Both the position numbers and the translations under genes were made by a program. A stretch of DNA of 32,000 nucleotides. Source: Candidatus Electronema aureum. GTDB taxonomy: Bacteria; Desulfobacterota; Desulfobulbia; Desulfobulbales; Desulfobulbaceae. The stretch covers positions 60,001-92,000 of the forward strand of contig NQJD01000008.1 in NCBI GenBank assembly GCA_004284765.1, written 5' to 3'. Below are positions 1 through 27,875 of this stretch, in pieces. The number at the start of each line of letters is the position of its first letter. Positions within the stretch are counted from its first letter, which is position 1. Below the pieces are notes generated by a model. That model made no database searches. It was not told the DNA's origin and saw nothing but the letters and a program-made list of their open reading frames with translations.

Positions 1-124
1 GCTTGTGACCCGTGGACTCATTGCCAAAATGAGTGATCTCTTTCTCGATCTGACAGAGCAGACGCTTGCGCTTGTCAGTTATGCTGCCGCAGTCTTCGCT
101 GTCTTTACAGTCTTTCTTTTCCAT
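1..124 (-). CDS. Partial hypothetical protein; only the N-terminus lies in the window and the ORF runs off the left edge
   Basis: ATG at 124..122 is preceded by a GAGAGGGGG-like RBS. The frame stays open to position 1 (MEKKDCKDSEDCGSITDKRKRLLCQIEKEITHFGNESTGHK). It is missing from the ORF track because no stop lies in the window. I recognise no family. Confidence 0.25.
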   Translation of the reverse strand, partial: MEKKDCKDSEDCGSITDKRKRLLCQIEKEITHFGNESTGHK

Positions 125-253
125 GTCGTCGCCCCCTCTCGTTTCATTATCACTCAAGACCGGCTGTTGTCAAACTGAATCCTCAGCAGAGACGATGGTT
201 GCCCGACCTGAGCAGGCGGTTCTGTCCCCAGCAGCCCGCAGGCACCCTCTGCC

Positions 254-364
254 GGAGACACTACGGTGTCTCCAGTGGAGATACTAGGGTCACTCAGGGG
301 GAGACACTATAGTGTCTCGGTGGGAGATACCGTAGTGTCTCTGACGGAGATACCATAGTGTCTC
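254..364. repeat. Array of five contiguous palindromic units with an exact 23-bp period (GGAGAYAC-N3/4-GTGTCTC)
   Basis: Units start at 254, 277, 300, 323 and 346. Unit 1 is GGAGACAC-TACG-GTGTCTCC. Unit 3 contains the perfect 18-bp palindrome GAGACACTATAGTGTCTC (301..318). Unit 2 is degenerate. The leader CCGCAGGCACCCTCTGCC precedes the array, and a 12-bp palindrome CTCCAGCTGGAG follows at about 373..384. Confidence 0.9.
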
Positions 365-427
365 TTTTTGCGTCTCCAGCTGGAGAGGTTGGGGGACAGA
401 TCCACTCTCGCCAGCCCGTTTTTCCAG

Positions 428-456
428 TTGACAAAGACAGATATGCTGAGTAATAA
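428..456 (+). promoter_or_regulatory. Putative sigma70-type promoter for the 512..3977(5108) gene string
   Basis: TTGACA (428..433), a 17-nt spacer, then TAATAA (451..456), about 55 nt upstream of the ATG at 512. It lies immediately downstream of the palindromic array. The -35 reads TTGACAAAGAC, a one-base variant of the recurrent TTGACAAGAC. Confidence 0.45.
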
Positions 457-511
457 ATGTCTTTTCAGCTGTCATGCGCTGTATGTCATAATGAAAGATC
501 ACTGAGGCGTT

Positions 512-1201
512 ATGGATCATCTCGTAGTAGTGGGGTTTCTCGTCTATGCGGCACTGTTTCGCTTGGCGATTATCGCCACAGGCGTTGCAGCTATCGTCCT
601 CGGATACAAGCTGTTCTTGCGCGGCGTAATGGGCGAAGGCGGGACAAACGTCAACGCTGAGGCAGGGCCGATCAAGTTGACGCTTCATAACGCCGGGCCA
701 GGCGGAGTCTTTGCGCTGTTCGGCGCGGGTATTATCATAGTCATGCTTTCGCAGGGCAGCCCGGAACTCTTGATGAAGGATATGTCTCAGCTGACTGTAT
801 CTCCTCCTGATATGAACCAAAAGCCTGCGCATCAACAAGCATCTCAGCCTGAAAAAAGAGATGTGAGTACTGCTCTTCAAATACGCGGCGAAAATAACGA
901 TGACAAAGAGTGGAGCAAGCTAAATGAAAATGTAACCATGTCTGAAGCAGCAGAACCGTTGAGCAGCATTGCTCGTGTTTGGCTACAAGAAAAACGTACA
1001 GGTGAAGCTGTGGCAATGGCAAGATTGGCAGCATTTTATGGTTCGGAGAAGGATAAAGCAAACTATCATGCGCTGCTCGGTGAAGCGCTTTTTGAAAATG
1101 GCGATAAACAGAATGCTGTTAGTGCAATGCAAAAGGCGGCAGAGCGCGATCCACTTTATCGTGCGGCTTTAGCTCGAATGCAAGAACGTTTAGCAGAATG
1201 A
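512..1201 (+). CDS. Membrane protein with two predicted N-terminal TM helices and a TPR-like helical C-terminus
   Basis: Hydrophobic segments VVVGFLVYAALFRLAIIATGVAAIVLGY and GGVFALFGAGIIIVML. The C-terminus is helical and repeat-like (ALLGEALFENGDKQNAVSAMQKAAERDP). The stop overlaps the next start (ATGA at 1198..1201). Confidence 0.6.
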   Translation: MDHLVVVGFLVYAALFRLAIIATGVAAIVLGYKLFLRGVMGEGGTNVNAEAGPIKLTLHNAGPGGVFALFGAGIIIVMLSQGSPELLMKDMSQLTVSPPDMNQKPAHQQASQPEKRDVSTALQIRGENNDDKEWSKLNENVTMSEAAEPLSSIARVWLQEKRTGEAVAMARLAAFYGSEKDKANYHALLGEALFENGDKQNAVSAMQKAAERDPLYRAALARMQERLAE

Positions 1202-2517
1202 GAGGATTAGAGAAAATGGGTTGGTATAAGCAAAGGCAAGTCTTGTCGGTTCGGCTCGTGCTGCTTTTCGTTTTCCTTATGACAACAGCGGCAGTAAAAG
1301 AAGAGGCTGTCGCATCAAGTTTTGGTCGCTATCATGCTGTGGTGATTGGAAACCAAAACTATCAATATCTTGAGAAGTTGAACACACCTCTGAACGATGC
1401 ACGGGATATTGCACGGATATTGGAACAGCAGTACGATTTCAACGTGACGTTATTGCTGGATAAGAAGCGCGACGAGACAATGCGTTCCTTGTCAGAATTG
1501 CGTAGAACTATGGCCAAAGAAGATAATTTACTTATCTATTATGCTGGTCATGGAATTTTAGATGAAGATACTGATGTCGGCTACTGGCAGCCGATTGATG
1601 CTGACGATAGTGTTGTTAATTGGATTCCCTTTACTGATCTGATCACCTTGCTCAAAGGTCTTCAGGCGAACCATATTTTAGTAATTGCGGATTCCTGCTT
1701 CGCCGGTGCTCTTCAGATGACCAGAAACTCTGGGGCGGCTCTTGATTACGGCTCAGAGAGTTGGTTGCGTCGAATGCGTGAAAAGAAATCACGTACTGCT
1801 CTCACATCAGGCGGGATCGAAGATGTACTTGATGGAGGAGGTGGCAATCACTCGATTTTTGCAAAGGCTATCATTGATACATTACGAGAGAATAATACGA
1901 TATTGGATGGGCAAAGTCTATTTGATCAGGTCAAGCTGTTAGTTGTTAACAAGGCTGCTCAAACTCCAAACTATGATCCTATACGACTGACTGGCCACGA
2001 GTTTGGTGACTTTATTTTTATTCCAAAAGGACTCACTGAAACTTCTGTAGATAAGTCTCCAAAAGGTTCAATTCGCGATCTTACACGATCACCGAAGATC
2101 GATGAGGATAGGCGTGATTGGGAGATGCTCTCAAAGTTAGGTGAAGACGGATTAAAATCCTATCTCCTGCTGCACCAAGATGGCAAATGGGCCGGTGAGG
2201 CGCGTAAACGTATAGCTCGGTTGCAACCAAAATCGGAACCGCAGCGTCCAGTATCAGCGGCAAGAACGTTGACTCAGGCAGAAAAAGATCGGCTTGAGTC
2301 TGAGTGGCAGCGTGAGCAACATGCAAACAGTTCCTCTACGGCTCTGAATAGAACTGTGTCTAAGGAGGAGCAAGATCAGATTGATGATGAGTGGCAGAAG
2401 ATTCAAGGTGCTAGCACCTCCCATACCATCGAGGGGTTTCTTAGAATGTACCCTGTGGGCAGTCATGTGCCTGCTGTGCAGCAGAGGCTGGCAGAATTGC
2501 GTGCGCTCGGTCGATGA
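1198..2517 (+). CDS. Caspase-like peptidase (C14 family, orthocaspase/metacaspase-like) with an N-terminal signal or anchor and a C-terminal W-x-x-hQ repeat region
   Basis: Catalytic dyad context YYAGHG (His) and VIADSCFAG (Cys). The domain begins YHAVVIGNQNY. An N-terminal hydrophobic segment (LVLLFVFLMTTAAV) suggests export or membrane anchoring. The C-terminal half repeats DWEML / SEWQREQ / DEWQKIQ modules. The start could also be the M at 1216. Confidence 0.85.
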   Translation: MRGLEKMGWYKQRQVLSVRLVLLFVFLMTTAAVKEEAVASSFGRYHAVVIGNQNYQYLEKLNTPLNDARDIARILEQQYDFNVTLLLDKKRDETMRSLSELRRTMAKEDNLLIYYAGHGILDEDTDVGYWQPIDADDSVVNWIPFTDLITLLKGLQANHILVIADSCFAGALQMTRNSGAALDYGSESWLRRMREKKSRTALTSGGIEDVLDGGGGNHSIFAKAIIDTLRENNTILDGQSLFDQVKLLVVNKAAQTPNYDPIRLTGHEFGDFIFIPKGLTETSVDKSPKGSIRDLTRSPKIDEDRRDWEMLSKLGEDGLKSYLLLHQDGKWAGEARKRIARLQPKSEPQRPVSAARTLTQAEKDRLESEWQREQHANSSSTALNRTVSKEEQDQIDDEWQKIQGASTSHTIEGFLRMYPVGSHVPAVQQRLAELRALGR

Positions 2518-2548
2518 TTGTCTTGATGAATAATCATTGGTGGTTGAT

Positions 2549-3232
2549 ATGAAAACTGTACAATTCGGCATTGGAACGGCAGTATGTATTGCACTCAGCG
2601 GATGCACAGGCTTAGTAACCATGCCGAAGCTGGAAGGCTGCTATCCTGTGGATGCTCTTAGCGTATGGCAGCAGACTGCTCTTCATGTGGGGCGTGGCAA
2701 TCCGATACTTCTCATTGGTGGCAAGAAATTCGTGTGTACTTGCTATCAGGACAGCTCCTTGACCGGAATTGGTGAGAATGGCGGTGTGACCGGAATTGGC
2801 GAGAACGGCGGCGTGACCGGAATTGGCGAGAAAGGCGGTGTGACCGGCATTGGCGAGAAAGGCGGCGTGACCGGAATTGGTGAGAAAGGCGGCGTGACCG
2901 GAATTGGCGAGAAAGGCGGTGTGACCGGCATTGGTGAGAAAGGCGGCGTGACCGGTATTGGCGAGAAAGGCGGTGTGACCGGCATTGGCGAGAAAGGCGG
3001 CGTGACCGGCATTGGTGAGAAAGGCGGCGTGACCGGAATTGGTGAGAAAGGCGGCGTGACCGGAATTGGTGAGAAAGGCGGCGTGACCGGAATTGGTGAT
3101 TTTGCCGAATTCTCTTGCCGTATTGTGCCAGAGTGTCCGGGTTTTCAACTGATCGGCTATGGGCCGAAAGATGTCACGGTTCTTACTCCTGCCGGACAGA
3201 AGTCTGTCCCAGCAGGCTGCATCACTTGGTAA
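2549..3232 (+). CDS. Lipoprotein with 12.5 tandem nonapeptide repeats (T-GIGE[K/N]GGV)
   Basis: Signal peptide plus lipobox MKTVQFGIGTAVCIALSGC. The ORF track starts at TTG 2537, but ATG 2549 is more plausible. Twelve identical-length 9-aa repeats are flanked by Cys-containing N- and C-terminal segments. Confidence 0.75.
   Translation: MKTVQFGIGTAVCIALSGCTGLVTMPKLEGCYPVDALSVWQQTALHVGRGNPILLIGGKKFVCTCYQDSSLTGIGENGGVTGIGENGGVTGIGEKGGVTGIGEKGGVTGIGEKGGVTGIGEKGGVTGIGEKGGVTGIGEKGGVTGIGEKGGVTGIGEKGGVTGIGEKGGVTGIGEKGGVTGIGDFAEFSCRIVPECPGFQLIGYGPKDVTVLTPAGQKSVPAGCITW
2762..3099 (+). repeat. 27-bp tandem repeat, 12 full units plus a partial 13th, inside the lipoprotein CDS
   Basis: Units are ACCGGnATTGGyGAGAAnGGCGGyGTG starting at 2762 with an exact 27-bp period, so 3086-2762 = 324 = 12x27. 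Units differ only at unit positions 6, 12, 18 and 24, which are all third codon positions in the + frame. Confidence 0.95.
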
Positions 3233-3251
3233 ATTTCACTGAGAAGAGAGG

Positions 3252-3977
3252 ATGATAATGAAGAGATTTCCTGCTGTCTGTCTGCTTTCGCTGCCCATTC
3301 TGTCTGCCTGCGGCCCCTTGCCCCCTTTAGCAATAGATACGGGTGCGGGTGCGGCGCGGGCGTTGAACACCGTTGATTTGAGACAGCCTAATGTCACGCT
3401 CACATTTCTGTCCACCGGAAAAACGCACCGAACTGGCGATACGTTCCCTCCGCCGAAAACAATTGACTGTTCCCGTCTCAGGTTTGTCCCAGACGCATTC
3501 AAGGATGCCATTGAGGCTGGCGCACTCGTAGTACAGCTACAGACACCGCCAGAAGTCAAGAAGAAGGTCGTAGATAAAGATGGTAAAGAAACCATTGAGA
3601 TTGTGAAGATCAAACCAACTTACAGAGGCGTGCTAGCGTTGTGCAAAGTCTCCCCTCGTGCGACAGGGGCTGAGTCGCGAAGCTACCATATTCGCGATCT
3701 TGATGAATATCTTATTAAGGGTAAAGATAATCTGGTTTCTCTCGCCGTGGCACCACTGTCGCAGAGTAATCAGGCTGATCCATTCCAAGAATTGCTCAAT
3801 ATCAGTATGGGGCCTTCCTTTCAAGCCATCAGTGCAGGCAGGTCTTCCTACTCTTGGATGCTCTGGCTGACAGATAACCCGATAATCTTCACCGACTACG
3901 AGGCAGAGGTTGCCAGACGCAAAGCCTCAAAGCCCCGACCGACCACCCCAGCAGTGTCCACACCACGAACCCCGTAA
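3252..3977 (+). CDS. Lipoprotein of unknown function with a Pro/Thr-rich C-terminal tail
   Basis: RBS GAGAAGAGAGG. Signal peptide plus lipobox MIMKRFPAVCLLSLPILSAC. The C-terminus is KPRPTTPAVSTPRTP. I recognise no family. Confidence 0.6.
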   Translation: MIMKRFPAVCLLSLPILSACGPLPPLAIDTGAGAARALNTVDLRQPNVTLTFLSTGKTHRTGDTFPPPKTIDCSRLRFVPDAFKDAIEAGALVVQLQTPPEVKKKVVDKDGKETIEIVKIKPTYRGVLALCKVSPRATGAESRSYHIRDLDEYLIKGKDNLVSLAVAPLSQSNQADPFQELLNISMGPSFQAISAGRSSYSWMLWLTDNPIIFTDYEAEVARRKASKPRPTTPAVSTPRTP

Positions 3978-4040
3978 TCACGTTTTCTTTAACTCTCACT
4001 GTCTGAAGCTACCTCCCCACCCTCTCACCGGAGAACGATC

Positions 4041-5108
4041 ATGCTGACGATTCTATGGCGACCTGCACCAAATGCCCTGACCACGCCCAAGTCCTACCGC
4101 ATCCAAGCTGTACCGCGCAGCACTGACGGCTACGACGAGATGGCGGCGGACATCTCCGCAGAGCAGCCCATCTACAGCGCGGAGACGGTCAAAGGGCTTG
4201 CGCCGCTGATGATGGAGTGGATTCAGCGGCGGATGATCAACGGCAGCCAAGTCACCTTTCCAGAATCCTTCAGCTTCCATGTCTCTTTCACCGGCAAGCT
4301 GGACAGCCCGGATGCTCCGCTGCCAGAGGGCAACGACCTGCTTCAGGTCAATGTGCGCGTCTCACAGCCTTTTGTCAAAGAGATACGGCATAAGGCCAAG
4401 CTCGAACGCCTGCCCGCGACCGAGAAGGCACCGGTGATCATCTCCGCCGAGGACACCCTGCTCAAGCTCAACGCGGTGCTCAATCCGGCAGGCGTGCTGC
4501 TGCTCACCGGCAACGACCTTGCTGCTGATCCGCAGAGCGCAGGCAGCGTGGTGATTGAAGGCACCCGGAACGGCAGCGCAGTGCAGACACGCCTGCTGCG
4601 GGTCGGACCAAGCGAGATCATGCTGATGCCGGACATCCCGGCGCAGGATAATTCGTGGAATAACGAATACACAGTCACGGTCAACGCCCGCTACAGCGAG
4701 CATGGCACGCCGCGCACCGGCACATGCAGCCGCAAGCTGCGCACGCCGCTGCTGATCAACGGGCTGGCGTTTGAGACCGGCCCCGGCATCCTCAGCGGTG
4801 AGACAGACGCGCCTACTGCGCGGTTGAGCAGCGGCACGGCCAGCGCGTCCGAGCTACTGCGCATTCAGGCTCTGGTGGACAGCCGCACCGGTCAGCTCAC
4901 CTTGCGCCTCCTCGACATGCAGGAAGGCGGCAGGGCAGGCGCGGCGGTCGCAGTGACAGTGGATGGAGACTACGAGCTGCCCGGCTTCAGCGGCTCGGCG
5001 GTGCAGTCGCTCACCATTGCGGTTGAGAATCTCGCCGGACTGATCAGCCTGACACGGGACAACTACAGCGGCAGACTGGTGGATGTGTTGGATGTGAGGA
5101 TAGAGTAA
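4041..5108 (+). CDS. HU-like (HU-HIG type) DNA-binding domain protein with a DUF4469-like Ig-fold region and an extra C-terminal domain; paralog 1
   Basis: The N-terminal pattern W-R-P-x-x-N-A-L-T-x-P-x-S-Y-R..V-P-R..G-Y-D-x-M-A..I, then ..NGSQVTF..F.F..S.TGK, matches my memory of the Bacteroidota-type HU-HIG plus DUF4469 architecture (VLNPxGVLxLTGxNL ... MPDIPAQ ... YS.HGTPRTG..RKLRTP). RBS GGAGAAC. It is a paralog of 19159..20235. Confidence 0.6.
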   Translation: MLTILWRPAPNALTTPKSYRIQAVPRSTDGYDEMAADISAEQPIYSAETVKGLAPLMMEWIQRRMINGSQVTFPESFSFHVSFTGKLDSPDAPLPEGNDLLQVNVRVSQPFVKEIRHKAKLERLPATEKAPVIISAEDTLLKLNAVLNPAGVLLLTGNDLAADPQSAGSVVIEGTRNGSAVQTRLLRVGPSEIMLMPDIPAQDNSWNNEYTVTVNARYSEHGTPRTGTCSRKLRTPLLINGLAFETGPGILSGETDAPTARLSSGTASASELLRIQALVDSRTGQLTLRLLDMQEGGRAGAAVAVTVDGDYELPGFSGSAVQSLTIAVENLAGLISLTRDNYSGRLVDVLDVRIE

Positions 5109-5204
5109 GGTCATCGTCCCGGCGGTCGTCCTGTTTGAGATAGGGTAGCCGCTGCCACCTTCCTTCCTCGCTCGGTTCTTCTCAGTCCGCAAGCACCCTC
5201 TGCT

Positions 5205-5241
5205 GGAGACACCCTAGTGTCTCTGGCGGAGATACCGTAGT
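5205..5241. repeat. Second copy of the 23-bp-phased palindromic array: 1 full unit and 1 truncated unit
   Basis: The same leader CCGCAAGCACCCTCTGCT (about 5187..5204) is followed by GGAGACACCCTAGTGTCTC (5205..5223) and GGAGATACCGTAGT (5228..5241). The second unit breaks off exactly where the MITE-type TIR begins at 5242. Confidence 0.85.
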
Positions 5242-5259
5242 ACCTAATGTGCAACTCTT
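5242..5259. mobile_element. Solo copy of the MITE terminal inverted repeat (ACCTAATGTGCAACTCTT)
   Basis: 18/18 identity with the left TIR of the element at 8433. It replaces the expected GTCTC end of palindromic unit 2. The internal sequence that follows is unrelated to the 8433 element, and no convincing partner TIR was found. Confidence 0.55.
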
Positions 5260-7962: not shown

Positions 7963-9282
7963 TTATTCAATATTCCCGCTCCGCTGCACCCGTGCTGTGC
8001 TCTCTGGGGCAATGTACCATGCTCCCCCAGTATTGCCACGAAGGTCATTATCCTCGAAGATGCCGCCTCCATCTAAAATCACCGCAATACCCACACTGCT
8101 GTTCTGCGTGATGCGGTTGCGGCGCAGGATCGGGTTGCTGTCTGTCCTAATAATTAAGTTGCCGCCTGTCGTAATTACGCCTGGCATGATCTCCACGCCA
8201 GGCCCCTCATTGGCGAATATCTCGTTGTCCTCCAGCGTCGCTTGGCTGTTCCTCATATAAATGCCGCCTCCGCTGTATATCGACGAAAGAAAACCAAAGC
8301 GGCCATTCATAAAGATACGGTTGCGGCGCAGGGTTGGGTTGCTGCCTGACATGATAATACCGTATAGTACGCCGTCAAATATCTCGTTGTCCTCCAGCGT
8401 CCCTTGACCATTCTCCATAAAGATACAGTAACACCTAATGTGCAACTCTTTTTAGCTTACAAGTTACACGAAATATCCTCTTGAAAATACAGGAATTGTA
8501 CTGAACAGCCGATATTGAAAACACCAGAGATCGTATGCGCAATGGGTTTGCTTTAAAACATTTCAGCAAATGAGAGCCTACTGTTTCCCGGCAAACTTCC
8601 TGATTATGTGCAGACGGCGAGATGCCCAAGTTGGGATCACAATCAAATTAAAATTGCAGTAAGACTGTCTTCAGCGACACACTATCCCAAAAAGAGTTGC
8701 ACATTAGGTACAGTAACTATTCCCGCCATGAATGCGACAGCGGCGGATGAGTGGAGTTGCGCCCTTGTGGATTCTCACGCAGTCATTACCGCTGCCTGAA
8801 ATGTCGCAATCCTCTAGTTCAAGCTTGCCCTTGGCAATCGCGACACAGCAATACAGAGTTAGGTTGGCGATCCGTCCATTCTCTGCGTCAAACCGAACGG
8901 CATTGCTGCCATCACCTGCAATCATAATGTCGCTTCGCTCCCCTTCTCCTATGATCTCGACTGGTTTGTCAATCACTATGCTTTCTTTGTACAAACCAGG
9001 CCGAACAAAGATTCGGGTGCCTGCTTTTACGGCCTTTAGCGCATTAGTGATTGTTGCATAGTCGTCGTGATTGGACGAATCCACCACCACGGTTGGTGGC
9101 CCGTTCGCATACTTATCATCCTTATTCACATAGCTCAGAAAGGCAAGTGGTGTCCGGCTCAATTCGGGTTCCTCCGCAGCGGTGTTGGTTGCTTGTTCCT
9201 GCATCAGCCGCATAATAACTGCGTTTCTGCCGCGCTGCAAGCGGTTCAGACTGCGGCGCGGCTGGTGACGGCACGGCATCAC
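7963..9282 (-). pseudogene. Right-handed parallel beta-helix repeat protein, interrupted by a MITE-like insertion
   Basis: The N-terminal part (8704..9282) contains TRIFVRPGLYKESIVIDKPVEIIGEG and beta-helix turns. The C-terminal part (7963..8445) contains repeated ATLEDNEIF / NPxLRRNRI turns. Removing 8433..8709 plus one copy of the 8-bp duplication rejoins them in frame as ...IHGGNSYC-IFMENGQGTLEDNEIF..., about 344 aa. Confidence 0.85.
8433..8709. mobile_element. 277-bp non-autonomous MITE-like element with 21-bp perfect TIRs and an 8-bp target-site duplication
   Basis: The left TIR ACCTAATGTGCAACTCTTTTT (8433..8453) is the exact reverse complement of 8689..8709. The direct repeat ACAGTAAC flanks it at 8425..8432 and 8710..8717. 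It has no transposase-sized ORF. The host frame terminates at a TAA inside the TIR. Confidence 0.88.
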
Positions 9283-17133: not shown

Positions 17134-18615
17134 CTACTCGTAACGGGCGGCCCAAATATCGTACTCGCTGATATCACGACCAAACATATTGGGGCGGAAA
17201 TCGTCAGTTTGGAGCCAGATGGCAAGAGCATTGCCCGCCGCATCAATCGCGATCTGAGGAACTTCCGCATTGTCTGCGTCGGTCGTGATGGACTGGGCCT
17301 TCTCCCAGCCGCTGCCAAGGACATATCGACTGGCCCGGATATTGCAACCATTAACGACAATACCAGTTGGCTTGCTGCTGCACTGGCTCCAAACAGCAAG
17401 GGCATTGCCTGCTCTGTCGAAAGCGATCTTGGGATGATACGCATGGTTCATGGCAGCACCGGTTTCGATGCGCTGGGCCTTCTGCCAGCCGACATCTGCT
17501 GTGTAACGGTTGAACCAGAGGTTGGTCCGGTCGGCATCACGCTGACACTCGGACCAGACAGCAAGGCCATTGCCCGCTCCATCGAAGGCGACCTCAGGAG
17601 GTTCCGCACAGCCTGGTGCGCCGTTATTGATGCGCTGGGCTTTCTGCCAGCCGTTGCCTGCCACATAACGGTTGCTCCAGATATTATCCTCATGCCCGTT
17701 GTCGCGTTGCTGCCAAACAACAAGGGCGTTGCCAGCTTCATCCACAGCAATCTCGTGATTCGGACTTGCATTCTTCTTGATGATCTGTGCCTTCTGCCAG
17801 CCCTTGCCGACCTCATAGCGGTTAGACCAGAGATTTGTACACGTGGGATCTTCATCTTTCCCCCAGACGGCAATGGCGTTGCCTTTTTTGTCCATTGCAA
17901 CTTTGAGAAGTTTTGGATGGACATTGACACCTATAACATCAGTGCCCCCAGCATCGGTCGCTATAAATTGGATATCACCCCAGCTTTTGCCTGACATGTA
18001 GTATTTAGCTATAATATTTCCTTCTAAAGTCCAAGCAACAACAACATTGCCTGCTTTATTCATTGCAATCCTGAGATCGGATACAGAATTAGCATTTTTA
18101 GAATTGAATAAACCGTTAAAGAGGCTGGTCTCCTTGATTACCTGTGCCTCCTGCCAGTCTTTACCAGACTCGTAGCGATCAGTCCATATTTTGCCACTCC
18201 GACTCGAAGCAACAATGGCATTTCCACGTCCATCAATTGCAACATTGGAATGGTATATGTCGTTGATTTGAATTGACCGAGCTGTTCCCCAGCCTCTGCC
18301 GGCCTTGTAACTATTGATCCACATATTTCTGCGGTCGTTGTCACTCTTCCACATATTTCCGCTGTTGTTGTCACTCTGATTCCAGAAAACAATGACATCA
18401 CCAGCCTCGTTGAACGAAACTTCGAGACTGTACTTTTCGGCATCATCACCAGCTTTGATATGTTTAGGAGCATGCCATGTCTTTTTATTCGCCGGTGCTG
18501 CCGGGGTGGTGCGGTCGAGCACATCAGCGGCACCGCCTGCTGGAACAGCAAGGCAGAGAGACGCAAGGATGGCCTTGCTGACAACGGTTCGGGCAAAGAA
18601 GGAGTTACGTCTCAT
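17134..18615 (-). CDS. Secreted protein with about 8 tandem 45-50-aa repeats, likely a beta-propeller-like fold
   Basis: Signal peptide MRRNSFFARTVVSKAILASLCLAVPAGGAA. The repeat signature hxhAhDxxGNAhxVW...NhWxNRYxxGxGWQKAQxI recurs 8 times. I recognise no family name. Confidence 0.75.
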   Translation of the reverse strand: MRRNSFFARTVVSKAILASLCLAVPAGGAADVLDRTTPAAPANKKTWHAPKHIKAGDDAEKYSLEVSFNEAGDVIVFWNQSDNNSGNMWKSDNDRRNMWINSYKAGRGWGTARSIQINDIYHSNVAIDGRGNAIVASSRSGKIWTDRYESGKDWQEAQVIKETSLFNGLFNSKNANSVSDLRIAMNKAGNVVVAWTLEGNIIAKYYMSGKSWGDIQFIATDAGGTDVIGVNVHPKLLKVAMDKKGNAIAVWGKDEDPTCTNLWSNRYEVGKGWQKAQIIKKNASPNHEIAVDEAGNALVVWQQRDNGHEDNIWSNRYVAGNGWQKAQRINNGAPGCAEPPEVAFDGAGNGLAVWSECQRDADRTNLWFNRYTADVGWQKAQRIETGAAMNHAYHPKIAFDRAGNALAVWSQCSSKPTGIVVNGCNIRASRYVLGSGWEKAQSITTDADNAEVPQIAIDAAGNALAIWLQTDDFRPNMFGRDISEYDIWAARYE

Positions 18616-18754
18616 CGCGTCACCTCAGGTGATAATTTTCAGCGGCACCGCCTGCTGGAACAGCAAGGCAGAGAGACGCAAGGATGGCCTTGCTGACAAC
18701 GGTTCGGGCAAAGAAGGAGTTACGTCTCATCGCGTCACCTCAGGTGATAATTTT
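18525..18754. repeat. Perfect tandem duplication (2 x 115 bp) spanning the RBS, start codon and signal-peptide codons of the 17134..18615 gene
   Basis: 18525..18639 and 18640..18754 are identical by eye. The second copy gives a decoy ATG at 18730..18728 that opens a 36-codon ORF (MRRNSFFARTVVSKAILASLCLAVPAGGAAENYHLR). That ORF stops in the AGGTGA Shine-Dalgarno, 4 nt before the authentic ATG at 18615. Confidence 0.93.
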
Positions 18755-18808: not shown

Positions 18809-18860
18809 GCATGTTATAGACGTTTATGGATGTGCGCTTCGCCTGTGCTCGCTCCAAAAC

Positions 18861-19008
18861 ACAGGTTAAGCTCCTGCTCTGGACAGGCTATGCACAGAGG
18901 GAGCATAACGTTATGCTCCTGCCGAGCTTAACCTGTCTACAGCACGAGCATAGGCTATGGTTTGCGCCTGCCATAGCCTATGCTCTTTAATCACCATAGC
19001 CTATGTTC
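18861..19008. repeat. Cluster of palindromes and inverted repeats of a second type (GAGCATA-N-TATGCTC / CCATAGCCTATGYTC)
   Basis: - Perfect 18-bp palindrome GAGCATAACGTTATGCTC at 18901..18918.
- It is nested in the 13-bp inverted repeat ACAGGTTAAGCTC (18861..18873) / GAGCTTAACCTGT (18924..18936).
- GAGCATAGGCTATGG (18946..18960) is the exact inverted repeat of CCATAGCCTATGCTC (18971..18985).
- A third copy, CCATAGCCTATGTTC, sits at 18994..19008, which is 23 bp after the second. Confidence 0.8.
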
Positions 19009-19072
19009 TGGCAAAGGCATGGGGCATCCTCTGGCAAAAATGCTCTGCGCTCCAGCATTGTTGACAATTCCA

Positions 19073-19101
19073 TTGACAAGACCGCAGCACCGTTTTAATC
19101 T
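19073..19101 (+). promoter_or_regulatory. Putative sigma70-type promoter with the extended -35 TTGACAAGAC
   Basis: TTGACA (19073..19078), a 17-nt spacer, then TAATCT (19096..19101), about 57 nt upstream of the ATG at 19159. A second TTGACA lies at 19061. Confidence 0.45.
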
Positions 19102-19158: not shown

Positions 19159-20235
19159 ATGACAACCATTCAATGGCGGCCCCAAGTCAATGCCCTCACC
19201 AAGCCCCAATCCTACCGCCCGCAAGTGGTGCCGCGCGGCACATCCGGCTACGACAAGATGGCTGTCGACATCTCGACTGCTCATCCGGTGTATAACGCTG
19301 ACCTGATTCGCTCGGTCGCGCCGCTGATCATGGACTGGATACAGCAGGAGCTGATCAGCGGCTTGCAGGTGACGCTGGAGGATGCCTTCACCTTTCATCC
19401 CTCGATGACTGGAAAAATGGCCGGGCCGGATGACCCGCTGCCGAATGCCAATGAGCTGCTGCAAGTCAATGTGTACGCCGCCCGCGCCTTTGTCCAAGCT
19501 GTCCGCCAAAAGGCCAAGCTGGAGCGGCTGCCGATGAATGAGAAGCTGCCGCAGGTCACGTCAAGCGAAGACACCAAGCTCAAGCTGGCCGATGTCCTCA
19601 ACCCGAACGGCGTGCTGCGCCTGACCGGCAGCAATCTCTGGTTTGATGAGAACGACCCGGACAGCGGCTGCACCATCAGCGGCACCCAGAGCGGCGTGAA
19701 AAAGCAGAGCACCTTCGCCTCAGTCTCCAACAGCGAGATACTGCTGGTGCCGGACATCCCGGCTCAGGCCCATCCGTGGAACAACGAATGCGCCTTGAGC
19801 CTCACCACCCAATATACCGCGCACGGCACACCGCGCACCGGCATCTACCGCAGGCGGCTGCGCAGCCCGCTCACTGCGACGAAGATGGGCCACCCTAATC
19901 CGCCGGAGACCGGTATTCTTAGTGGCAATGGAGCCAGCCCCTTGGTCAGCATCAAGGGAGGGACGGTCTCGACAGACGAGCGGCTGCGCATTCAGGCGGT
20001 TCTTGACGTGCAGGCAGACCGGCTGCTCTTCAGCTTGCTGGATATGAAGGAAAATGGCGCGGCAGGAGCAGAGGTGCCTGTGGCTGCGAACGGGAGCTTC
20101 ACCCTGCAAGGCTTCAGCGGCTCGGCAGTCAGCAGTTTGACGATCAGCGTGAATGACTATGCCAGCCTGAAGAAGCTGGTTCACGATCAGTACAGCGGCA
20201 GGCTGGTTGATATACTGGATGTGAAGGTGGCGTGA
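19159..20235 (+). CDS. HU-like (HU-HIG type) DNA-binding domain protein with a DUF4469-like region; paralog 2
   Basis: It is collinear with 4041..5108 (MTTIQWRPQVNALTKPQSYRPQVVPRGTSGYDKMAVDIS... against MLTILWRPAPNALTTPKSYRIQAVPRSTDGYDEMAADIS...). It shares VLNPNGVLRLTGSNL, VPDIPAQ, YTAHGTPRTG and the C-terminal YSGRLVDxLDVxx. Identity is roughly 45-50% by eye. Confidence 0.6.
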   Translation: MTTIQWRPQVNALTKPQSYRPQVVPRGTSGYDKMAVDISTAHPVYNADLIRSVAPLIMDWIQQELISGLQVTLEDAFTFHPSMTGKMAGPDDPLPNANELLQVNVYAARAFVQAVRQKAKLERLPMNEKLPQVTSSEDTKLKLADVLNPNGVLRLTGSNLWFDENDPDSGCTISGTQSGVKKQSTFASVSNSEILLVPDIPAQAHPWNNECALSLTTQYTAHGTPRTGIYRRRLRSPLTATKMGHPNPPETGILSGNGASPLVSIKGGTVSTDERLRIQAVLDVQADRLLFSLLDMKENGAAGAEVPVAANGSFTLQGFSGSAVSSLTISVNDYASLKKLVHDQYSGRLVDILDVKVA

Positions 20236-20418: not shown

Positions 20419-21195
20419 TCATGTTTGTTTGAACTGAGCCAAGGCCGCCTTGAGCATCTCCGCTGTGCCTTCATGTCCTGCGCTGGCAGCAATAAATCCG
20501 CCACGCTGTTGCACTAACTCTATCACCAGCTGCGATGCGCTTCGTAGCGTTAAAGGAAACACGGCATTTCGCAGCAAGGTCAAGTCATCATCTGTATCAC
20601 CTGCGGCGCATCGAATGTAATGGGTTTGCCCAAATGCTGCTTGAAAGGCTGCGTATTTATCCCCAAGTTTAGGGATAAGAGCTATCTTGCGCCTTCCAGC
20701 AATGATCCTGAACTGTTTACCTATAATAGTTGGCAGTTCTGCAATAAAAGCTGCTGCAAACTGTTGTTCTTTGACAGAGTAGAGTAGAACAGACTGATGG
20801 CTTCCTTGATAATATTCTGTGTCAATCGCCAAATTGTGCTGTCGAACTATTTCTTTGATCTGAGCATGAGCAGAAGCAAGATTAACTTCGGATAATACTC
20901 TTTCATTCCAAGCAGGACAGCCGTCAATACGTGTTCCGTGTTCCAATATCCAGCCAGTAATCCGTAAACCAGCAGTAGCAAAATGCGCTCGAAAATCAGC
21001 AGTTGTTGTCATAGACCTGCCTGTTGCAACATAGAGATCGGTTAATTCTGCCAATTCAAGCAGTAGTTCAATGACACGGTAGTCTATGACCGAATCAGTT
21101 GTCCGACCCCGGATAGGTAAACCATCTGGCAGCGGACTATTATGATTTAGAGTTCCATCAAGATCAAAGACAAAAGCTGCTTTTCTTCTTTCCAT
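20419..21195 (-). CDS. HAD-superfamily phosphatase/hydrolase
   Basis: Motif I is FVFDLDGTLNH. A later GD(T)DDD-type motif is CAAGDTDDDLTLL. The gene lies 3 nt downstream of the preceding HAD gene. Confidence 0.8.
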   Translation of the reverse strand: MERRKAAFVFDLDGTLNHNSPLPDGLPIRGRTTDSVIDYRVIELLLELAELTDLYVATGRSMTTTADFRAHFATAGLRITGWILEHGTRIDGCPAWNERVLSEVNLASAHAQIKEIVRQHNLAIDTEYYQGSHQSVLLYSVKEQQFAAAFIAELPTIIGKQFRIIAGRRKIALIPKLGDKYAAFQAAFGQTHYIRCAAGDTDDDLTLLRNAVFPLTLRSASQLVIELVQQRGGFIAASAGHEGTAEMLKAALAQFKQT

Positions 21196-21198
21196 CTT

Positions 21199-21936
21199 TT
21201 AGCTATGATGATCTGCTAATTTGGCATAAGCCCAGCGCAACATATCCTCTGCTGCTGCATGAGCAGTGAAAGGTGAGCAGTAACCGTTTTTTCCTTTTAC
21301 AATCTCTTGTATTTCAGGACAGGCCGTACTCAGCGTAACTGAATGCGTGCTTTTCTGTAGCAGCTGCATATCGTTGAGATCGTTTCCTAAGGAAATGTAT
21401 GGCTCGACATTGAACTGGGCAAGACCAAGCATCTTGTCAGGCATCTGAGGATAGATAAAAATCTTCGGGTGCTGATGACAAACATAACCGTTCTCTTGCG
21501 TTTCCTTTAACAGTTGCTGAACAAGAGCTGCTGGATTTTCATATCTGTTTGGTAGGATAAACCCTACAGAGCTTTCATACCCCAGAATTGGTTCCCAATC
21601 GACAGGAACCTTGTCTGCAAATCGCCATTTTCTTTTGTGTTGGTTTGTACTGCTTATATCAGTTTTGACAATGAAACCATTCTCAAGTACAAACCCGGCA
21701 AAGTGTACTTTTGTAAGCTGATTGGTTATTTTTTCAACGCTAAAGGCATTTCTCCCGGTTGCAATAAAAGTCGGTAGTCGCTGACTGATTTCAGCCAGCA
21801 GCTCAACAGTTTTACCAGAAAGATAGCAATCCCTTGAACGCCCTTTGATGATGTAGGATTCCGGCTCATAATGCAGAAGCGTTCCATCAAGGTCAACAAC
21901 AACTGCTTTGTCGGGATGGCCTTTGCGTATGTCCAT
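21199..21936 (-). CDS. HAD-superfamily phosphatase/hydrolase
   Basis: Motif I is VVVDLDGTLLH, with a conserved ATGRN and a C-terminal GNDLNDMQLL. Its start abuts the stop of the upstream gene (21936/21937). Confidence 0.8.
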   Translation of the reverse strand: MDIRKGHPDKAVVVDLDGTLLHYEPESYIIKGRSRDCYLSGKTVELLAEISQRLPTFIATGRNAFSVEKITNQLTKVHFAGFVLENGFIVKTDISSTNQHKRKWRFADKVPVDWEPILGYESSVGFILPNRYENPAALVQQLLKETQENGYVCHQHPKIFIYPQMPDKMLGLAQFNVEPYISLGNDLNDMQLLQKSTHSVTLSTACPEIQEIVKGKNGYCSPFTAHAAAEDMLRWAYAKLADHHS

Positions 21937-22929
21937 TTATCCGGCAATATGTAAAGAACAGGCAGCACGAGTGCGGTAATTTCGTAAAAATTGCTGATTG
22001 TATTGCACTGGCACCTTGCGCTGATCAGCCAAAGTCAGCAGCAGTGAAAAATGCTCGCGCACATACTGGGCATCATCAACAAAAAACAAAGTGCTGGGCA
22101 AGGCGTTGATCAATGCCCTGCAAACTTCGTTACTGTGCAGACGCAGCTCAGTTTTTTGATAGAATTTTTCGCCGCCACCAAGCGGGAACGCAGCAGGCCG
22201 GGAAGGGCCTGATTGGTACCAAGTGGCAACTAAGTCCTTGCGGACATAGCGTTCTGGAAATGTATAAGCCGCAAAAAAACTTTGCTCATCAATAAAAAAA
22301 GTCCTTGAAAAGCCAAGCGTTGCCAGCCCTGTGAAACAGGCAGAAGGACAGAAAATGTCTTCTTGGCAGCCTGAAAAATCAGCCCAGCCCCAAGGATCAT
22401 TGAGGACAGCCAAAGGCCCTGCACCAAGCCGAGCAAGTTCTCTGGCTACCCCGCCGCGCCCTGTCCAGCCGTCCACGAAAATAATTTTTCGTTCTGGAAA
22501 ATCAGCCTGTAGGCGGGATAAGGCCACGCGGTCGATACCGATACCGACAAAAAGCGACAGAGCCGCTGCAACTGATCCGGGTAGCATTGTGCAGAGCCAT
22601 TGAGCAATCGGAACGCCAGCCCTGAGAATCGCGGCAAAAAGCAGACGCTCTGGCTGCGGCTCCCATTGTATAATCGCCGCTGCGAGCCGTTGCGCCGCTT
22701 CCCGAATCTGCTCATTGTCAATTTCTACTGCCACGGTGTGCCAGAAATCATCATCAAGATCAGGTTCAGGTGAGGGAGCTGACCAAAAGGTATTTTCACC
22801 AGAGTATGCTTGATTCAAGCTGCGAAAACGATGTGGCTCGTCAAAAGGATGAACTTCTTCAAGAAGATTGACGTAGAGATGCTGCTGCCAGATATTTCCT
22901 TCCGCAGAAGGAAGAATCGCCTTGTGCAT
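21937..22929 (-). CDS. Phosphoribosyltransferase-like protein (ComF-like/StiP-N-type PRTase of Ter-associated clusters)
   Basis: KIIFVDGWTGRGGVARELARL resembles the DGWTGKG signature I associate with the PRTase_3/StiP N-terminal family. The operon context with a PRTase_2-like gene and two HAD genes supports the call. The assignment is from memory only. Confidence 0.5.
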   Translation of the reverse strand: MHKAILPSAEGNIWQQHLYVNLLEEVHPFDEPHRFRSLNQAYSGENTFWSAPSPEPDLDDDFWHTVAVEIDNEQIREAAQRLAAAIIQWEPQPERLLFAAILRAGVPIAQWLCTMLPGSVAAALSLFVGIGIDRVALSRLQADFPERKIIFVDGWTGRGGVARELARLGAGPLAVLNDPWGWADFSGCQEDIFCPSACFTGLATLGFSRTFFIDEQSFFAAYTFPERYVRKDLVATWYQSGPSRPAAFPLGGGEKFYQKTELRLHSNEVCRALINALPSTLFFVDDAQYVREHFSLLLTLADQRKVPVQYNQQFLRNYRTRAACSLHIAG

Positions 22930-22949
22930 ATCAAATCGCCACGCAGAGG

Positions 22950-23870
22950 TTATGAAAGCGAAAACTCTTCAACAGTCATCCCCGTTGTTTCTAAATGATC
23001 TTTTACCTTATTGCCGATCTCGTGATCAGCTGGATCGTACAATAGATGTATTGGACTTTTTATACGTTGATAATTGTATAGAAAATAATTGCAAAAATTC
23101 ACCCTGCTTTTGATGTGAATTGTATCCACAGTCCAAGGGCTGAGTGTGATGTGCTGAAATGACCTGAAGACACGGGCAGCAACGAGAAAAACTGCTGTAC
23201 TTACAGCTTCGCCAATCACGAAAAGATGCTCTCCGTAATGTCTCTTGATCAGGTGCTGTTTACCGAGTTCAGCTGCCACGTTTTCTATCATATTTTCAGG
23301 ATAAGATGCTATTATCGTGTTGCTATTTTCTATTTTGTTGCAATATTCAGCTGCGGAACCGTGAATGCCTGCCAAAGAGGCAGCAGAATGAAAAAGATAC
23401 GTTTTTTCTGAGCAGCCAACTAGACGAAAAAAATCATCTTTTTGCAGTTGAGAACGAGAATCAGCAAAGGAAAAAATTCGGAAGATTTTTGCGGAAACAT
23501 GTTTCTGTATCTGGTTGAGTAAATTTTTCACTGTAGTGCCGGAAGTTATTTCATCTTCAACTATCCAAATTTCTTCATAATGACCTTCTGGCAGCGGCAA
23601 AATGTGATGCGGCCCGTGTGAATGAATTTCCTGAAAAGGGATACCTGATACGCCGACGCGGCGGGTGGAACATGTCCAGTTGCACGAAATCTTTCGACGA
23701 AGTGCCTCCATATACATCAAAAATGACGGAACAATACCTGATTCCGTTAGCCCTATCAGTAACACTTCTCCTAAAACTGGCACGTAGTTCGCTGATTCTT
23801 CAAGCAATTGAGCCAAATAGCCGCTTCCCCGCTGAAGATGTGAACAGTCGGCAGGATGCAGTTTTCCCAA
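22950..23870 (-). CDS. Phosphoribosyltransferase (PRTase_2-like) with a C-terminal TRSP-like domain
   Basis: The PRPP-binding loop is EIWIVEDEITSGTTVKNLL. The upstream STRRVGVSGIPFQEIHSHGPHHILPL resembles the F-x-E-x-HSH motif of Ter-associated PRTases. The ORF starts at TTG 23870, so the start is uncertain. Confidence 0.62.
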   Translation of the reverse strand: MGKLHPADCSHLQRGSGYLAQLLEESANYVPVLGEVLLIGLTESGIVPSFLMYMEALRRKISCNWTCSTRRVGVSGIPFQEIHSHGPHHILPLPEGHYEEIWIVEDEITSGTTVKNLLNQIQKHVSAKIFRIFSFADSRSQLQKDDFFRLVGCSEKTYLFHSAASLAGIHGSAAEYCNKIENSNTIIASYPENMIENVAAELGKQHLIKRHYGEHLFVIGEAVSTAVFLVAARVFRSFQHITLSPWTVDTIHIKSRVNFCNYFLYNYQRIKSPIHLLYDPADHEIGNKVKDHLETTGMTVEEFSLS

Positions 23871-26997: not shown

Positions 26998-27182
26998 GAA
27001 AATAAGGGATGCTGCTTATTAACTGAGCGGGGTGCCGAACTTTCTGGTTGGTGCGGGTAGATTTATCCCGCGCCGGAAAGTTGAGAAAAGCCACAGCCGT
27101 CGCGAGGCGGTGTCGGAAAGCCACGGGTCTCCATTTTGGAGACAGCCGGGTTGCCTGCTTCACATATACCAGGGAGGGTATC

Positions 27183-27875
27183 ATGAAAACAACTCAAACA
27201 ACATTAGGAGGAAAATCAAGTTTACAGAAAAGAATGACTGCGCTGGCCGGAATTCTGTTGGCCGCCGCCCTCGGTGCCTGCCAAGCCAAGCCGGAGTCTG
27301 CTCTTTCTGTCCCTCATGCCGACACAGTCAGCAATGCTGATCAAAGCGGCTGGATTTCATTAAGCAATGTGGTGTCGGAAGCTGAAGCGGCCACAGCTGC
27401 TCCTGCCGCCGGTTACGGAGGCAAAGGAACAGTTGATCCGGCAGCAATGGTGGCAGCGCATAATCGTTGGCGGACAAAAGTCGGTGTATCATCCGGACTC
27501 AGGTGGTCGGACAAGCTGGCTGGCGTGGCTCAAGGCTGGGCGAATCAGCTGAAAAACGAAGGCTGCGCTATGTACCACAGCGGCAATGGCTACGGTGAGA
27601 ACATTTACAAAGCCAGCGCACTGATGTGGTCGGATGGTCGTCGCGATTTACAGAAGAAAACACCGCAGCAGGTCACGGACAGCTGGGGCAGCGAAATCAA
27701 ATTCTACGATTACGAGAGCAACAGCTGTAGCGGAGTCTGTGGTCATTACACCCAAGTAGTGTGGAAAAACACCCAAGAAGTCGGCTGCGCCATGTCGGTC
27801 TGTGGCGACAATTCGCAAATTTGGGTATGCAGTTACTATCCCGCAGGCAACGTAGTTGGTCGCAAACCGTACTGA
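27183..27875 (+). CDS. CAP/SCP/PR-1 superfamily lipoprotein, paralog 1
   Basis: RBS GGGAGGG. The lipobox is LAAALGAC. CAP motifs are AAHNRWRTKVGV, GYGENIY, HYTQVVWKNTQEVGCA and VCSYYPAGNVVG. Confidence 0.85.
   Translation: MKTTQTTLGGKSSLQKRMTALAGILLAAALGACQAKPESALSVPHADTVSNADQSGWISLSNVVSEAEAATAAPAAGYGGKGTVDPAAMVAAHNRWRTKVGVSSGLRWSDKLAGVAQGWANQLKNEGCAMYHSGNGYGENIYKASALMWSDGRRDLQKKTPQQVTDSWGSEIKFYDYESNSCSGVCGHYTQVVWKNTQEVGCAMSVCGDNSQIWVCSYYPAGNVVGRKPY

Follow-up and report, generated by a model that had tools for sequence, protein, structure and literature searches.

In this work we analyzed a stretch of 32,000 nucleotides of Candidatus Electronema aureum (contig NQJD01000008.1, positions 60,001 to 92,000 of the forward strand, hereafter the window), and we describe an array of short quasi-palindromic units, repeated with an exact 23-bp period, that lies upstream of a promoter-like sequence and heads a block of genes ending with an HU-like gene. 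The product of this last gene (4041..5108, plus strand) is predicted from its modeled structure to have an HU fold joined to an Ig-like domain, and we refer to it as HU-Ig. Most of the HU-Ig paralogues that we examined have an array of their own near their promoter, with the period kept and the spelling changed. We give about even chances to the view that the array is a cooperative protein-binding lattice, operator- or parC-like, which is cognate to its HU-Ig paralogue.

The first array of the window (GGAGACAC, 254..364, no strand) consists of five quasi-palindromes of 19 or 20 bp, GGAG[A/T][C/T]AC-YAYR-GT[G/A/C][T/A]CTC, starting at 254, 277, 300, 323 and 346, that is, in exact 23-bp register. 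Tandem Repeats Finder returned a period of 23 with 4.8 copies and 76% matches over 254..364, and the same period with 1.9 copies over 5198..5241. Looking for GGAGAYAC-N4-GTGTCTC with at most 3 mismatches, we found 12 strand-hits in the window, all of them inside these two arrays, versus 0.90 +/- 1.14 in shuffled sequence, where the maximum was 4 and none of 100 shuffles reached 12. The phased array of the preliminary description is thus real, with five units at 254..364 and a decayed copy of 1.6 units at 5205..5246. Of the palindrome claimed there, the repeat stands, while the unit is not a true palindrome, its center being asymmetric (TAYGG or the complement CCRTA).

Both arrays are preceded by an 18-nt leader, CCGCARGCACCCTCTGCY, which occurs exactly twice in the window (at 236 and 5187; 0.15 expected). 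A longer conserved leader, GGTTCTGTCCCCAGCAGCCCGCAGGCACCCTCTGCC (219..253, no strand), is found on the same flank of most of the 19 arrays examined, and also directly upstream of array-less HU-Ig promoters in two loci (L026 and L030). On the other side, a conserved trailer (365..427, no strand) comes after the array and reads, in this order, TTTTTGC, GCTGGAGAG and CTCTCGCC; it is common to most promoter-preceding arrays, and in these TTTTTGC always comes after the last unit. The promoter that had been predicted downstream of the array reads TTGACA-17-TAATAA (428..456, plus strand), 64 bp past the last unit, is kept in the orthologous contig L019, and has TTGACAAA in common with the promoters of HU-Ig genes. 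A simple promoter scanner did not list it because its rule demands a T at position 6 of the -10 hexamer. The proposed spacing also holds, since the array is found 64-174 bp upstream of the promoter and this geometry recurs in related loci. The promoter scan also gave a strong divergent sigma-70-type promoter, TTGACA-16-GATAAT (146..173, minus strand, 11/12 matches), 81 bp from the array, serving a gene whose start, on the minus strand, is at 124 and which continues beyond the window edge. A sigma-54 promoter in the leader or trailer was rejected by reading, the GG/GC spacing being unfit.

We compared 111 units from 19 independent arrays, whose sources were pattern scans of one genome per species (7), pattern scans of metagenomes (7 more) and contig look-ups (3 more distinct). 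The spacing was 23 bp throughout except for two 24-bp steps, and the arrays contained 4-8 full units, each with a contiguous 19-bp core and a 4-bp linker. Positions G2, A7 and T14 were invariant and A3, G4, C8, C17, T18 and C19 were at least 96% conserved, while positions 5, 6, 15 and 16 varied independently. The unit is composed of two GAGNNAC half-sites with centers 11 bp apart, the next half-site following 12 bp on, and these half-sites build a lattice with two dyads per 23 bp. The center was T9..G12 in 72 units (forward), C9..A12 in 27 (reverse) and another combination in 12 (Fisher p = 1.4e-14); because of this asymmetry, the units have a direction. The majority share one direction, and reversed units tend towards the array ends. 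When units of like position were compared between loci and between species, they and their linkers (e.g., ...CTCCAGT) were recognizably homologous. Considering this positional homology, the arrays are old, stable and constrained in register, rather than homogenized or recombining.

We looked for selection on hairpin pairing in 86 distinct units, taken as 8-bp hairpins whose 3' partners were shuffled by column (500 shuffles). Results showed that pairing is not selected, as 81.3% of the cells were paired versus 81.0 +/- 0.7 after shuffling (222 of the 500 shuffles were at least as high), and that the stem has no excess of double changes. Mismatches were frequent (A.A at pair 5-16 in 39/111 units, C.C at pair 8-13 in 25/111) and conserved at homologous units. 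Rfam gave no match to a known RNA family at the array; over 100..520, only sub-threshold microRNA noise was returned and no curated covariance model matched. Together, the lack of covariation, the conserved A.A and C.C mismatches and the empty Rfam search indicate that the symmetry of the unit is of the kind expected where a symmetric protein reads duplex DNA, and not of the kind that a selected hairpin has.

The distribution of the element was examined with a two-unit pattern in 185,579 species genomes. Only 7 loci were found, all in Electronema or Desulfobulbaceae and with 1-3 loci per genome, including three loci in one metagenome-assembled genome (MAG) and one in the complete 3.2-Mb chromosome of E. 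halotolerans; in metagenomes, seven contigs had the pattern. The pattern scan of viral contigs was empty, as was blastn against 72,556 plasmids and against phages, and an origin from phages or plasmids was rejected on these grounds. A relaxed core scan together with a lag-independent periodicity scan of 285 kb revealed no further arrays spelled GGAGACAC. Assembly unitigs break inside the GGAGACAC array, which is expected for a sequence present few times per genome. These results agree with the earlier opinion that the array is neither a CRISPR, as its units are contiguous and without spacers, nor a member of a dispersed family of repetitive extragenic palindromes (REPs) or bacterial interspersed mosaic elements (BIMEs), as the genome-wide pattern scan places it at a few loci of one lineage. 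A chance match to the pattern was an unrelated 23-bp tandem repeat, GGAGACCCACCTGTGTCTC x5, at 722..832 of L007, a Bacteroidaceae MAG. It lies between a pta-like gene (by translation reading) and a gene for a putative rarA-like ATPase (by a look at the sequence), with no HU-HIG gene beside it. A link to the HU-HIG genes of Bacteroidetes had seemed possible, but because of these neighbors the repeat was dropped as a coincidence.

We also looked at the surroundings of 13 distinct HU-Ig gene loci. A phased array was found upstream at 10 of them and downstream at one, and the association of array and HU-like gene first noticed in the window is therefore one of conserved synteny. In six loci, an array of about 23 bp in period is located directly upstream of a conserved promoter (the gene at 19159 of the window, L027 with a period of about 24, L031, L032, L035 and L036), and in four a GGAGACAC array heads a block 1-3.7 kb upstream of the HU-Ig gene (the first array of the window, L017, L028 and L030). 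At L024, the array starts 14 bp past the HU-Ig stop codon. The remaining two loci, L026 and L034, could not be scored. As read from the sequence, the same C-terminal fragment of an insertion sequence (IS)-type transposase is found upstream of these array-less genes (L026 1..180, L034 1..140); it abuts the upstream region of L026, and in L034 it takes up the 220 bp ahead of the gene, with the contig ending there as well.

Orthologues of the 4041..5108 product that are at least 80% identical to it end blocks headed by a GGAGACAC array, with the order array, TPR, HU-Ig in L017 and L030, array, RCC1, HU-Ig in L028, and array, TPR, caspase, two putative lipoproteins, HU-Ig in the window. On L019, a shorter contig, the array is present with the first four genes, but the sequence stops short of where HU-Ig would be. 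The distant paralogues have their own conserved promoter, ccaTTGACAAA-N17-TTTACT, with the array immediately upstream, its period of about 23 bp kept and its spelling different: GCAACACCATGCTGTCAC in L031, CATCATTGATCGGGAGAGATACG in L036 (lag-23 identity 0.85), GAGCATAGTAGTATCCTC in L035 (0.72), TTGCACGGGAGAAGTAT in L032 (0.55) and GCACATCT/GCATGTAC in L027, where the period is about 24. The window itself has a second HU-Ig paralogue (19159..20235, plus strand), 52% identical to 4041..5108, whose promoter-like TTGACA-17-TAATCT (19073..19101, plus strand) is homologous to other HU-Ig promoters. Upstream of it, a second window array, absent from the preliminary description, at about 18855..19014 (no strand) with units GAGCATAG.CTATGCTC has a periodicity of about 23/45 bp and includes a perfect 20-bp palindrome, GGAGCATAACGTTATGCTCC, at 18899..18918. 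From the array end to the -35 hexamer, the distance is about 62-64 bp in four loci (the first array of the window, L032, L035 and L036).

The spelling of the arrays tracks the relatedness of the HU-Ig proteins. Proteins that are at least 80% identical share GGAGACAC, a 62% identical paralogue has the nearest variant spelling, GCAACACCATGCTGTCAC, and P0094 and P0081, which are 84% identical, are both spelled TTGNNCGRGAGARRTA, while the spelling of P0084 is unique. An unbiased scan of the same 285 kb at lags 15-39 gave lag-23 matches that were all non-coding and that were GGAGACAC-type arrays, arrays upstream of HU-Ig genes or the unrelated L007 repeat; the other matches were lag-27 coding repeats and one lag-24 match (L003 5280..5395). 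We searched for a conserved second neighbor gene as candidate binder and found none, the neighbors on the other side all being different. The HU-Ig gene is the only gene that constantly adjoins the arrays.

That the last gene of the module encodes an HU-like protein, as proposed at the outset, was recovered by fold. In the AlphaFold2 model of 4041..5108 (predicted local distance difference test score 76), an N-terminal beta-hairpin (E3-5/E22-24) is followed by two helices, strands and a helix, and Foldseek returned PDB 4FMR, an Ig-fused member of the HU-HIG clade, as best match (E = 2.5e-8), with HU/IHF next at a probability of 1.00. Sequence and profile searches of the HU-Ig protein against the PDB gave nothing significant, so that 4FMR was recovered by the fold search alone, and 4041..5108 itself had no Pfam match at E <= 0.01. 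Among 22 aligned sequences (20 homologues and both window proteins), 14 matched HU-HIG (PF18291) and 17 matched DUF4469 (PF14734). The protein has 599 relatives, and the named ones are from cable bacteria. The HU-HIG clade was described in Bacteroidetes, with occasional transfer to spirochaetes, as a modified HU joined to an Ig-like domain, with lineage-specific expansion, fast divergence and no conserved operon partners (PMC5499826).

Based on these data, we propose that the array is a cis-acting protein-binding lattice on double-stranded DNA, in which 5-8 sites adjoin one another at one site for every 23 bp and which lies 60-175 bp ahead of a sigma-70-type promoter, and that it belongs to an array family in which each array would be tied to one paralogue of the expanded HU-Ig (HU-HIG/DUF4469) family. 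A lattice is suggested by the symmetric half-sites one helical turn apart, the rigid register and the number of units (5-8), as well as by the roughly constant promoter offset, the paralogue-specific spelling and the constant HU-fold neighbor. The most likely binder would be the HU-Ig protein itself, considering that, for most of the paralogues examined, the array near the promoter has a spelling of its own. With one dimer on each unit, HU-Ig may cooperatively build a higher-order complex, which would set the activity of the adjacent promoter or promoters, with autoregulation and control of the genes between the array and the HU-Ig gene as a possible outcome. In the subfamily of 4041..5108, variable conflict-type cargo would have been inserted between the array with its promoter and the HU-Ig gene, and further GGAGACAC arrays (after TIR genes, ahead of gatB) might be targets in trans. 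The order array, promoter, genes and binder last is the layout of parC-parM-parR. Our analysis shows the anatomy and phasing of the arrays, their restriction to one lineage, their low copy number, synteny and paralogue-specific spelling, the absence of hairpin covariation and the HU fold, and we infer the identity of the binder, its cooperativity and the regulatory outcome. A bolder version, which we regard as possible although doubtful, is that HU-Ig proteins are sequence-specific and that each polymerizes on a private address array of 23-bp period, so that orthogonal lattices gate conflict or immunity blocks (caspase, TIR, TPR, toxin-antitoxin) or organize the chromosome of the multicellular filament. 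This sequence-specific version runs contrary to the published expectation for the HU-HIG clade.

Several observations weigh against the HU-Ig lattice. The similarity of arrays and proteins can be explained by co-descent of the gene with its upstream region, without co-evolution. The last unit followed by TTTTT looks like an intrinsic terminator (a scan called one at 346..365), and the TTTTTGC after the last unit leaves room for a role as RNA or terminator. The HU-Ig family is acidic, with an isoelectric point of about 5 and a neutral to acidic HU domain, and the tip of its beta-arm, GKLDSPDDPLPxxDDL, has a net charge of -1 to -6 and is conserved, not variable, across paralogues. Such an acidic and conserved arm resembles neither the arms with which classical HU and IHF clasp DNA nor a determinant of specificity. 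Part of the DNA cleft of 4FMR is occupied by the Ig domain (PMC5499826), and it was argued that a role as sequence-specific transcription factors is unlikely for HU-HIG proteins and that the Ig-fused ones have perhaps moved off DNA binding (PMC5499826). E. halotolerans has a GGAGACAC array (L006), but those of its HU-Ig proteins that are listed within the 120 top-scoring hits reach only about 54% identity with 4041. Finally, some GGAGACAC arrays (the TIR/gatB type, L005, L006 and L021) have no HU-Ig gene in the fetched flank, which covered 8-kb loci or shorter contigs.

At six of the loci with GGAGACAC arrays, the array lies 60-100 bp past the stop codon of a TIR-domain gene, which in five of them (L001, L002, L004, L008 and L016) is a TIR + beta-helix gene. 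On the far side, gatB starts close by in L002 and L008, and a PBP/OmpA gene ends there in L004. At L005, the array is located between an XerC-like gene and a convergent TIR gene, at L006 between two TPR genes, and at L021 inside an ABC transporter operon, between the ABC-2 permease gene and the next gene. In the sixth TIR locus (L023 693..1922, minus strand), the domain of 3252..3977 of the window is joined to an N-terminal region that resembles TIR, and the C-terminal tail RGNKE* and the 3' flank are the same as in the TIR + beta-helix genes, which suggests domain swapping behind a constant 3' end. The window has a split TIR + beta-helix remnant next to asnS (7963..9282, minus strand, with two open reading frames, 7963..8445 and 8704..9282) that has lost its TIR domain. 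Intact versions are present in L001, L005 and L031; the L031 layout is asnS, TIR + beta-helix, variant array, HU-Ig.

The second copy of the array requires a separate description, as the preliminary description had considered that the two copies might bracket a recombination-bounded cassette. This copy consists of a leader (5152..5204) and an array (5205..5246; no strand for either) with one perfect unit and one degenerate unit with 3 mismatches, and it is 89% identical over 84 bp to the leader and first units of L003, whose array has 7 units. Just before it, 37 bp (5111..5147, plus strand) are 97% identical to the interior of a PIN (VapC-like) toxin gene that is intact in L003, L018 and L020. 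In L018 (306..728), this gene sits exactly between the HU-Ig stop and the array, and in L020 (1073..1489) and L003 (1538..1954) it is on the same side of the array, L003 adding a HepT/MNT pair. The junction of HU-Ig gene and array may be an insertion hotspot for toxin-antitoxin cassettes. In other genomes, the counterpart of the downstream array follows an HU-Ig gene or heads another block. Taken together, the PIN relic and the junctions of L003, L018 and L020 argue that the second copy is a decayed independent array beside a deleted PIN gene and not the far boundary of a cassette. The bracketing idea is further weakened by the single arrays found elsewhere and by the lack of a consistently adjacent recombinase (an XerC-like gene is present at L005 only).

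Among other explanations, the two copies could still be recombination sites of a mobile or exchangeable five-gene cassette (integron-like, shufflon-like or by direct-repeat deletion and insertion). In favor of it, the copies are in direct orientation with a leader in common, the cargo between array and HU-Ig differs by genome (TPR+caspase, TPR, RCC1), the divergence is a mosaic (TPR 94% vs caspase 61%), toxin-antitoxin cassettes are inserted exactly at the HU-Ig/array junction and an XerC-like gene abuts the L005 array. We nonetheless hold this improbable: the downstream copy is a 1.6-unit relic and most arrays are single, neither a recombinase nor a target duplication was found at the module, the gene of L005 is a near-housekeeping XerC (317 bits vs a cut-off of 335), the core of a tyrosine-recombinase site would need more length than an 8-4-8 palindrome offers, and the positional homology of the units implies old and stable arrays. 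An integron or shufflon proper was rejected, as there is no integrase and the one XerC-like gene scores near-housekeeping. It is even harder to see the element as a selfish repeat of the REP/BIME or miniature inverted-repeat transposable element (MITE) kind, in spite of palindromic units in both orientations that are intergenic, lie at the 3' end of some genes and break unitigs, because such a reading is countered by 1-3 loci per genome (the two-unit pattern gave a single one in the complete chromosome of E. halotolerans), by the lack of any in unselected flanking DNA of roughly 100 kb, by the absence of hairpin selection, and by flanks and unit order that are conserved across species. Five to eight repeats phased at 22-23 bp beside a promoter are the classic geometry of iterons, and this array has it; iterons of a plasmid, an integrative and conjugative element or a secondary replication origin are nevertheless very nearly discounted here, given that the neighbors are chromosomal housekeeping genes (asnS, gatB, gyrA, xerC, ilvD), with no Rep, DnaA or partition gene among their Pfam/NCBIfam matches, and that there are several loci per chromosome and no match in the plasmids searched.

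Two further explanations concern what reads the array. The lattice might be bound by another factor, with the HU-Ig genes as regulated targets or as co-factors that would work through protein or RNA contacts and not by reading the repeat. The acidic HU-Ig protein with its conserved acidic arm, the occluded cleft of 4FMR and the published view that HU-HIG is not sequence-specific (PMC5499826) would fit, and so would the arrays without a nearby HU-Ig gene and the GAG/GGAG that occurs once per 23 bp in all array types and could be read by one common factor. We consider this unlikely, since strong spelling differences between paralogues would be needless for a single common factor and HU-Ig is the only constant neighbor of the arrays. 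Less likely again is that the array acts as RNA, whether as a CsrB-like sponge, a type III antitoxin-like repeat RNA, an HU-associated RNA like naRNA4/REP325 or a multi-hairpin terminator or insulator. Every unit can be folded and most contain GGA, forward units would yield C(UAYG)G loops, and UACG is a stable tetraloop. TTTTT follows the last unit in the promoter-preceding type, with the terminator call at 346..365, some arrays are at gene 3' ends or inside an operon (L021, L024, TIR type), and there is the precedent of HU binding to REP325-derived RNA (PMC4550694). Against an RNA, pairing shows no covariation beyond column composition, A.A and C.C or U.C mismatches are conserved in the middle of the 8-bp stem in homologous units across species, no promoter was recognized upstream of the leader, Rfam gave no match, the arrays of the L036 paralogue are direct repeats with little hairpin potential, and both unit orientations occur within one array.

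Coming back to the module itself, 512..5108 is filled by five open reading frames, all on the plus strand. The first (512..1201) encodes a small protein that has a hydrophobic N-terminus, matches TPR weakly and below threshold and is 94% identical in L019. The second (1198..2517) encodes a caspase (Peptidase_C14), only 61% identical in L019, for which NCBIfam gave the 'EACC1-associated type' as a weak match (74.8 bits vs a cut-off of 140). These two adjacent genes lie in one operon (512..2517 vs L019 1945..3930), and their unequal divergence between the two strains indicates mosaic replacement or diversifying selection; the 5' untranslated region of L019 has about 300 bp extra. The third and fourth genes (2537..3232 and 3252..3977) encode putative lipoproteins. 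In the third, 2760..3099 contains 12.6 copies of a 27-bp coding repeat (GIGEKGGVT), and as short-read unitigs stop there the copy number may vary; the domain of the fourth is the one also fused to the TIR-like region in L023. The fifth is the HU-Ig gene, with putative HU-HIG and DUF4469 domains and a C-terminal beta domain, and it is the constant last gene of array-headed blocks.

Elsewhere in the window, a perfect 115-bp tandem duplication (18524..18753, copies 100% identical) looks very recent and covers the 5' end and upstream region of a minus-strand gene without a Pfam match (17134..18615). Directly after the second HU-Ig paralogue, a minus-strand cluster (20419..23870) encodes PRTase_2, a StiP-like cysteine protease and a weak HAD-like match, a tellurite-stress or conflict-type set. 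The only Rfam match at gathering level in the window is a c-di-GMP-I riboswitch of the UAU variant (27081..27159, plus strand), which precedes two genes for CAP/SCP-domain secreted proteins (27180..27875 and 28046..28672).

We also looked in the literature. Neither a 23-bp array family coupled to the HU-HIG/DUF4469 clade nor the HU-HIG expansion in cable bacteria with its link to caspase, TIR, TPR and toxin-antitoxin genes was found described, and searches on the motif, on tandem repeats of cable bacteria and on DUF4469 gave nothing relevant beyond Burroughs et al. 2017 (PMC5499826), the one in-depth analysis of HU-HIG proteins that these searches returned. As a kind of element, tandem operator or centromere arrays are already known, while the pattern of array and HU-Ig in cable bacteria is apparently undescribed. 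Within the HU/IHF superfamily, HU-HIG is a large branch that evolves fast and whose function is enigmatic; it is expanded here outside Bacteroidetes, and a paralogue-specific array with a fixed 23-bp ruler is the first concrete and testable candidate for a DNA partner of this family. The arrays are moreover physically linked to caspase, TIR, TPR and toxin-antitoxin genes, of the kinds proposed to be behind conflict and programmed-death systems in multicellular bacteria. Should HU-Ig bind them, the arrays would naturally make up a set of operators that are orthogonal and cooperative; should it not, a fixed 23-bp ruler across unrelated spellings would itself call for a new explanation.

Compared with known systems, the array resembles the iterons of RK2, pPS10, P1 and F (17-22-bp repeats at 22-23-bp phasing) in unit number, in phasing of about two turns with an exact 23-bp period, in its proximity to the promoter of the presumed binder gene and in the asymmetric center that gives most units the same direction; it differs by near-palindromic units, a housekeeping context and the lack of a Rep gene or origin features. 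With type III toxin-antitoxin systems (ToxI) it shares tandem short repeats, a terminator-like hairpin with a T-run and conflict-system genes thereafter, but its units are about 76% alike and in both orientations, the promoter is downstream of the array with none recognized upstream, and no endoribonuclease toxin gene is among the Pfam/NCBIfam matches of the downstream genes (TPR, caspase). REP/BIME elements and the REP325/naRNA4-HU system of E. coli are alike in having intergenic clusters of palindromes with alternating orientation and a proposed HU link; however, REPs occur in hundreds per genome and are hairpin-dependent, whereas the element described here is present in 1-3 copies, keeps an exact 23-bp register and shows no covariation of a hairpin. 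The functional link between HU, REP325 and naRNA4 in E. coli was proposed by Qian et al. 2015 (PMC4550694), and the chromosome-organizing role of REP325 is disputed (bioRxiv 10.64898/2026.03.23.713779). The family of 4041..5108 has the same fusion of HU and Ig-like domain as the HU-HIG clade (PDB 4FMR, Bacteroides vulgatus BVU_2165) and is likewise expanded, fast-diverging and without conserved operon partners, but its expansion is in cable bacteria (Desulfobulbaceae), it has an extra C-terminal domain, and most paralogues examined have a phased array, whereas no cis-element has been reported for the clade. In parC-ParR (parMRC of plasmid R1; parC of pSK41, with 20-bp tandem repeats) and in the omega heptads of pSM19035, contiguous short repeats, sometimes of mixed orientation, lie upstream of a promoter, and the product of the last gene of the operon binds them cooperatively, autoregulates and forms a wrapped higher-order nucleoprotein. 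Our element differs by the lack of a ParM/ParA/TubZ nucleoside triphosphatase partner, by its cargo (TPR, caspase, putative lipoproteins, RCC1), by its chromosomal and multi-locus occurrence and 23-bp period, and by a putative binder of HU fold instead of ribbon-helix-helix. The parC/ParR-like order, an array upstream of a block in which the candidate binder gene comes last, is found in the window, L017, L028 and L030.

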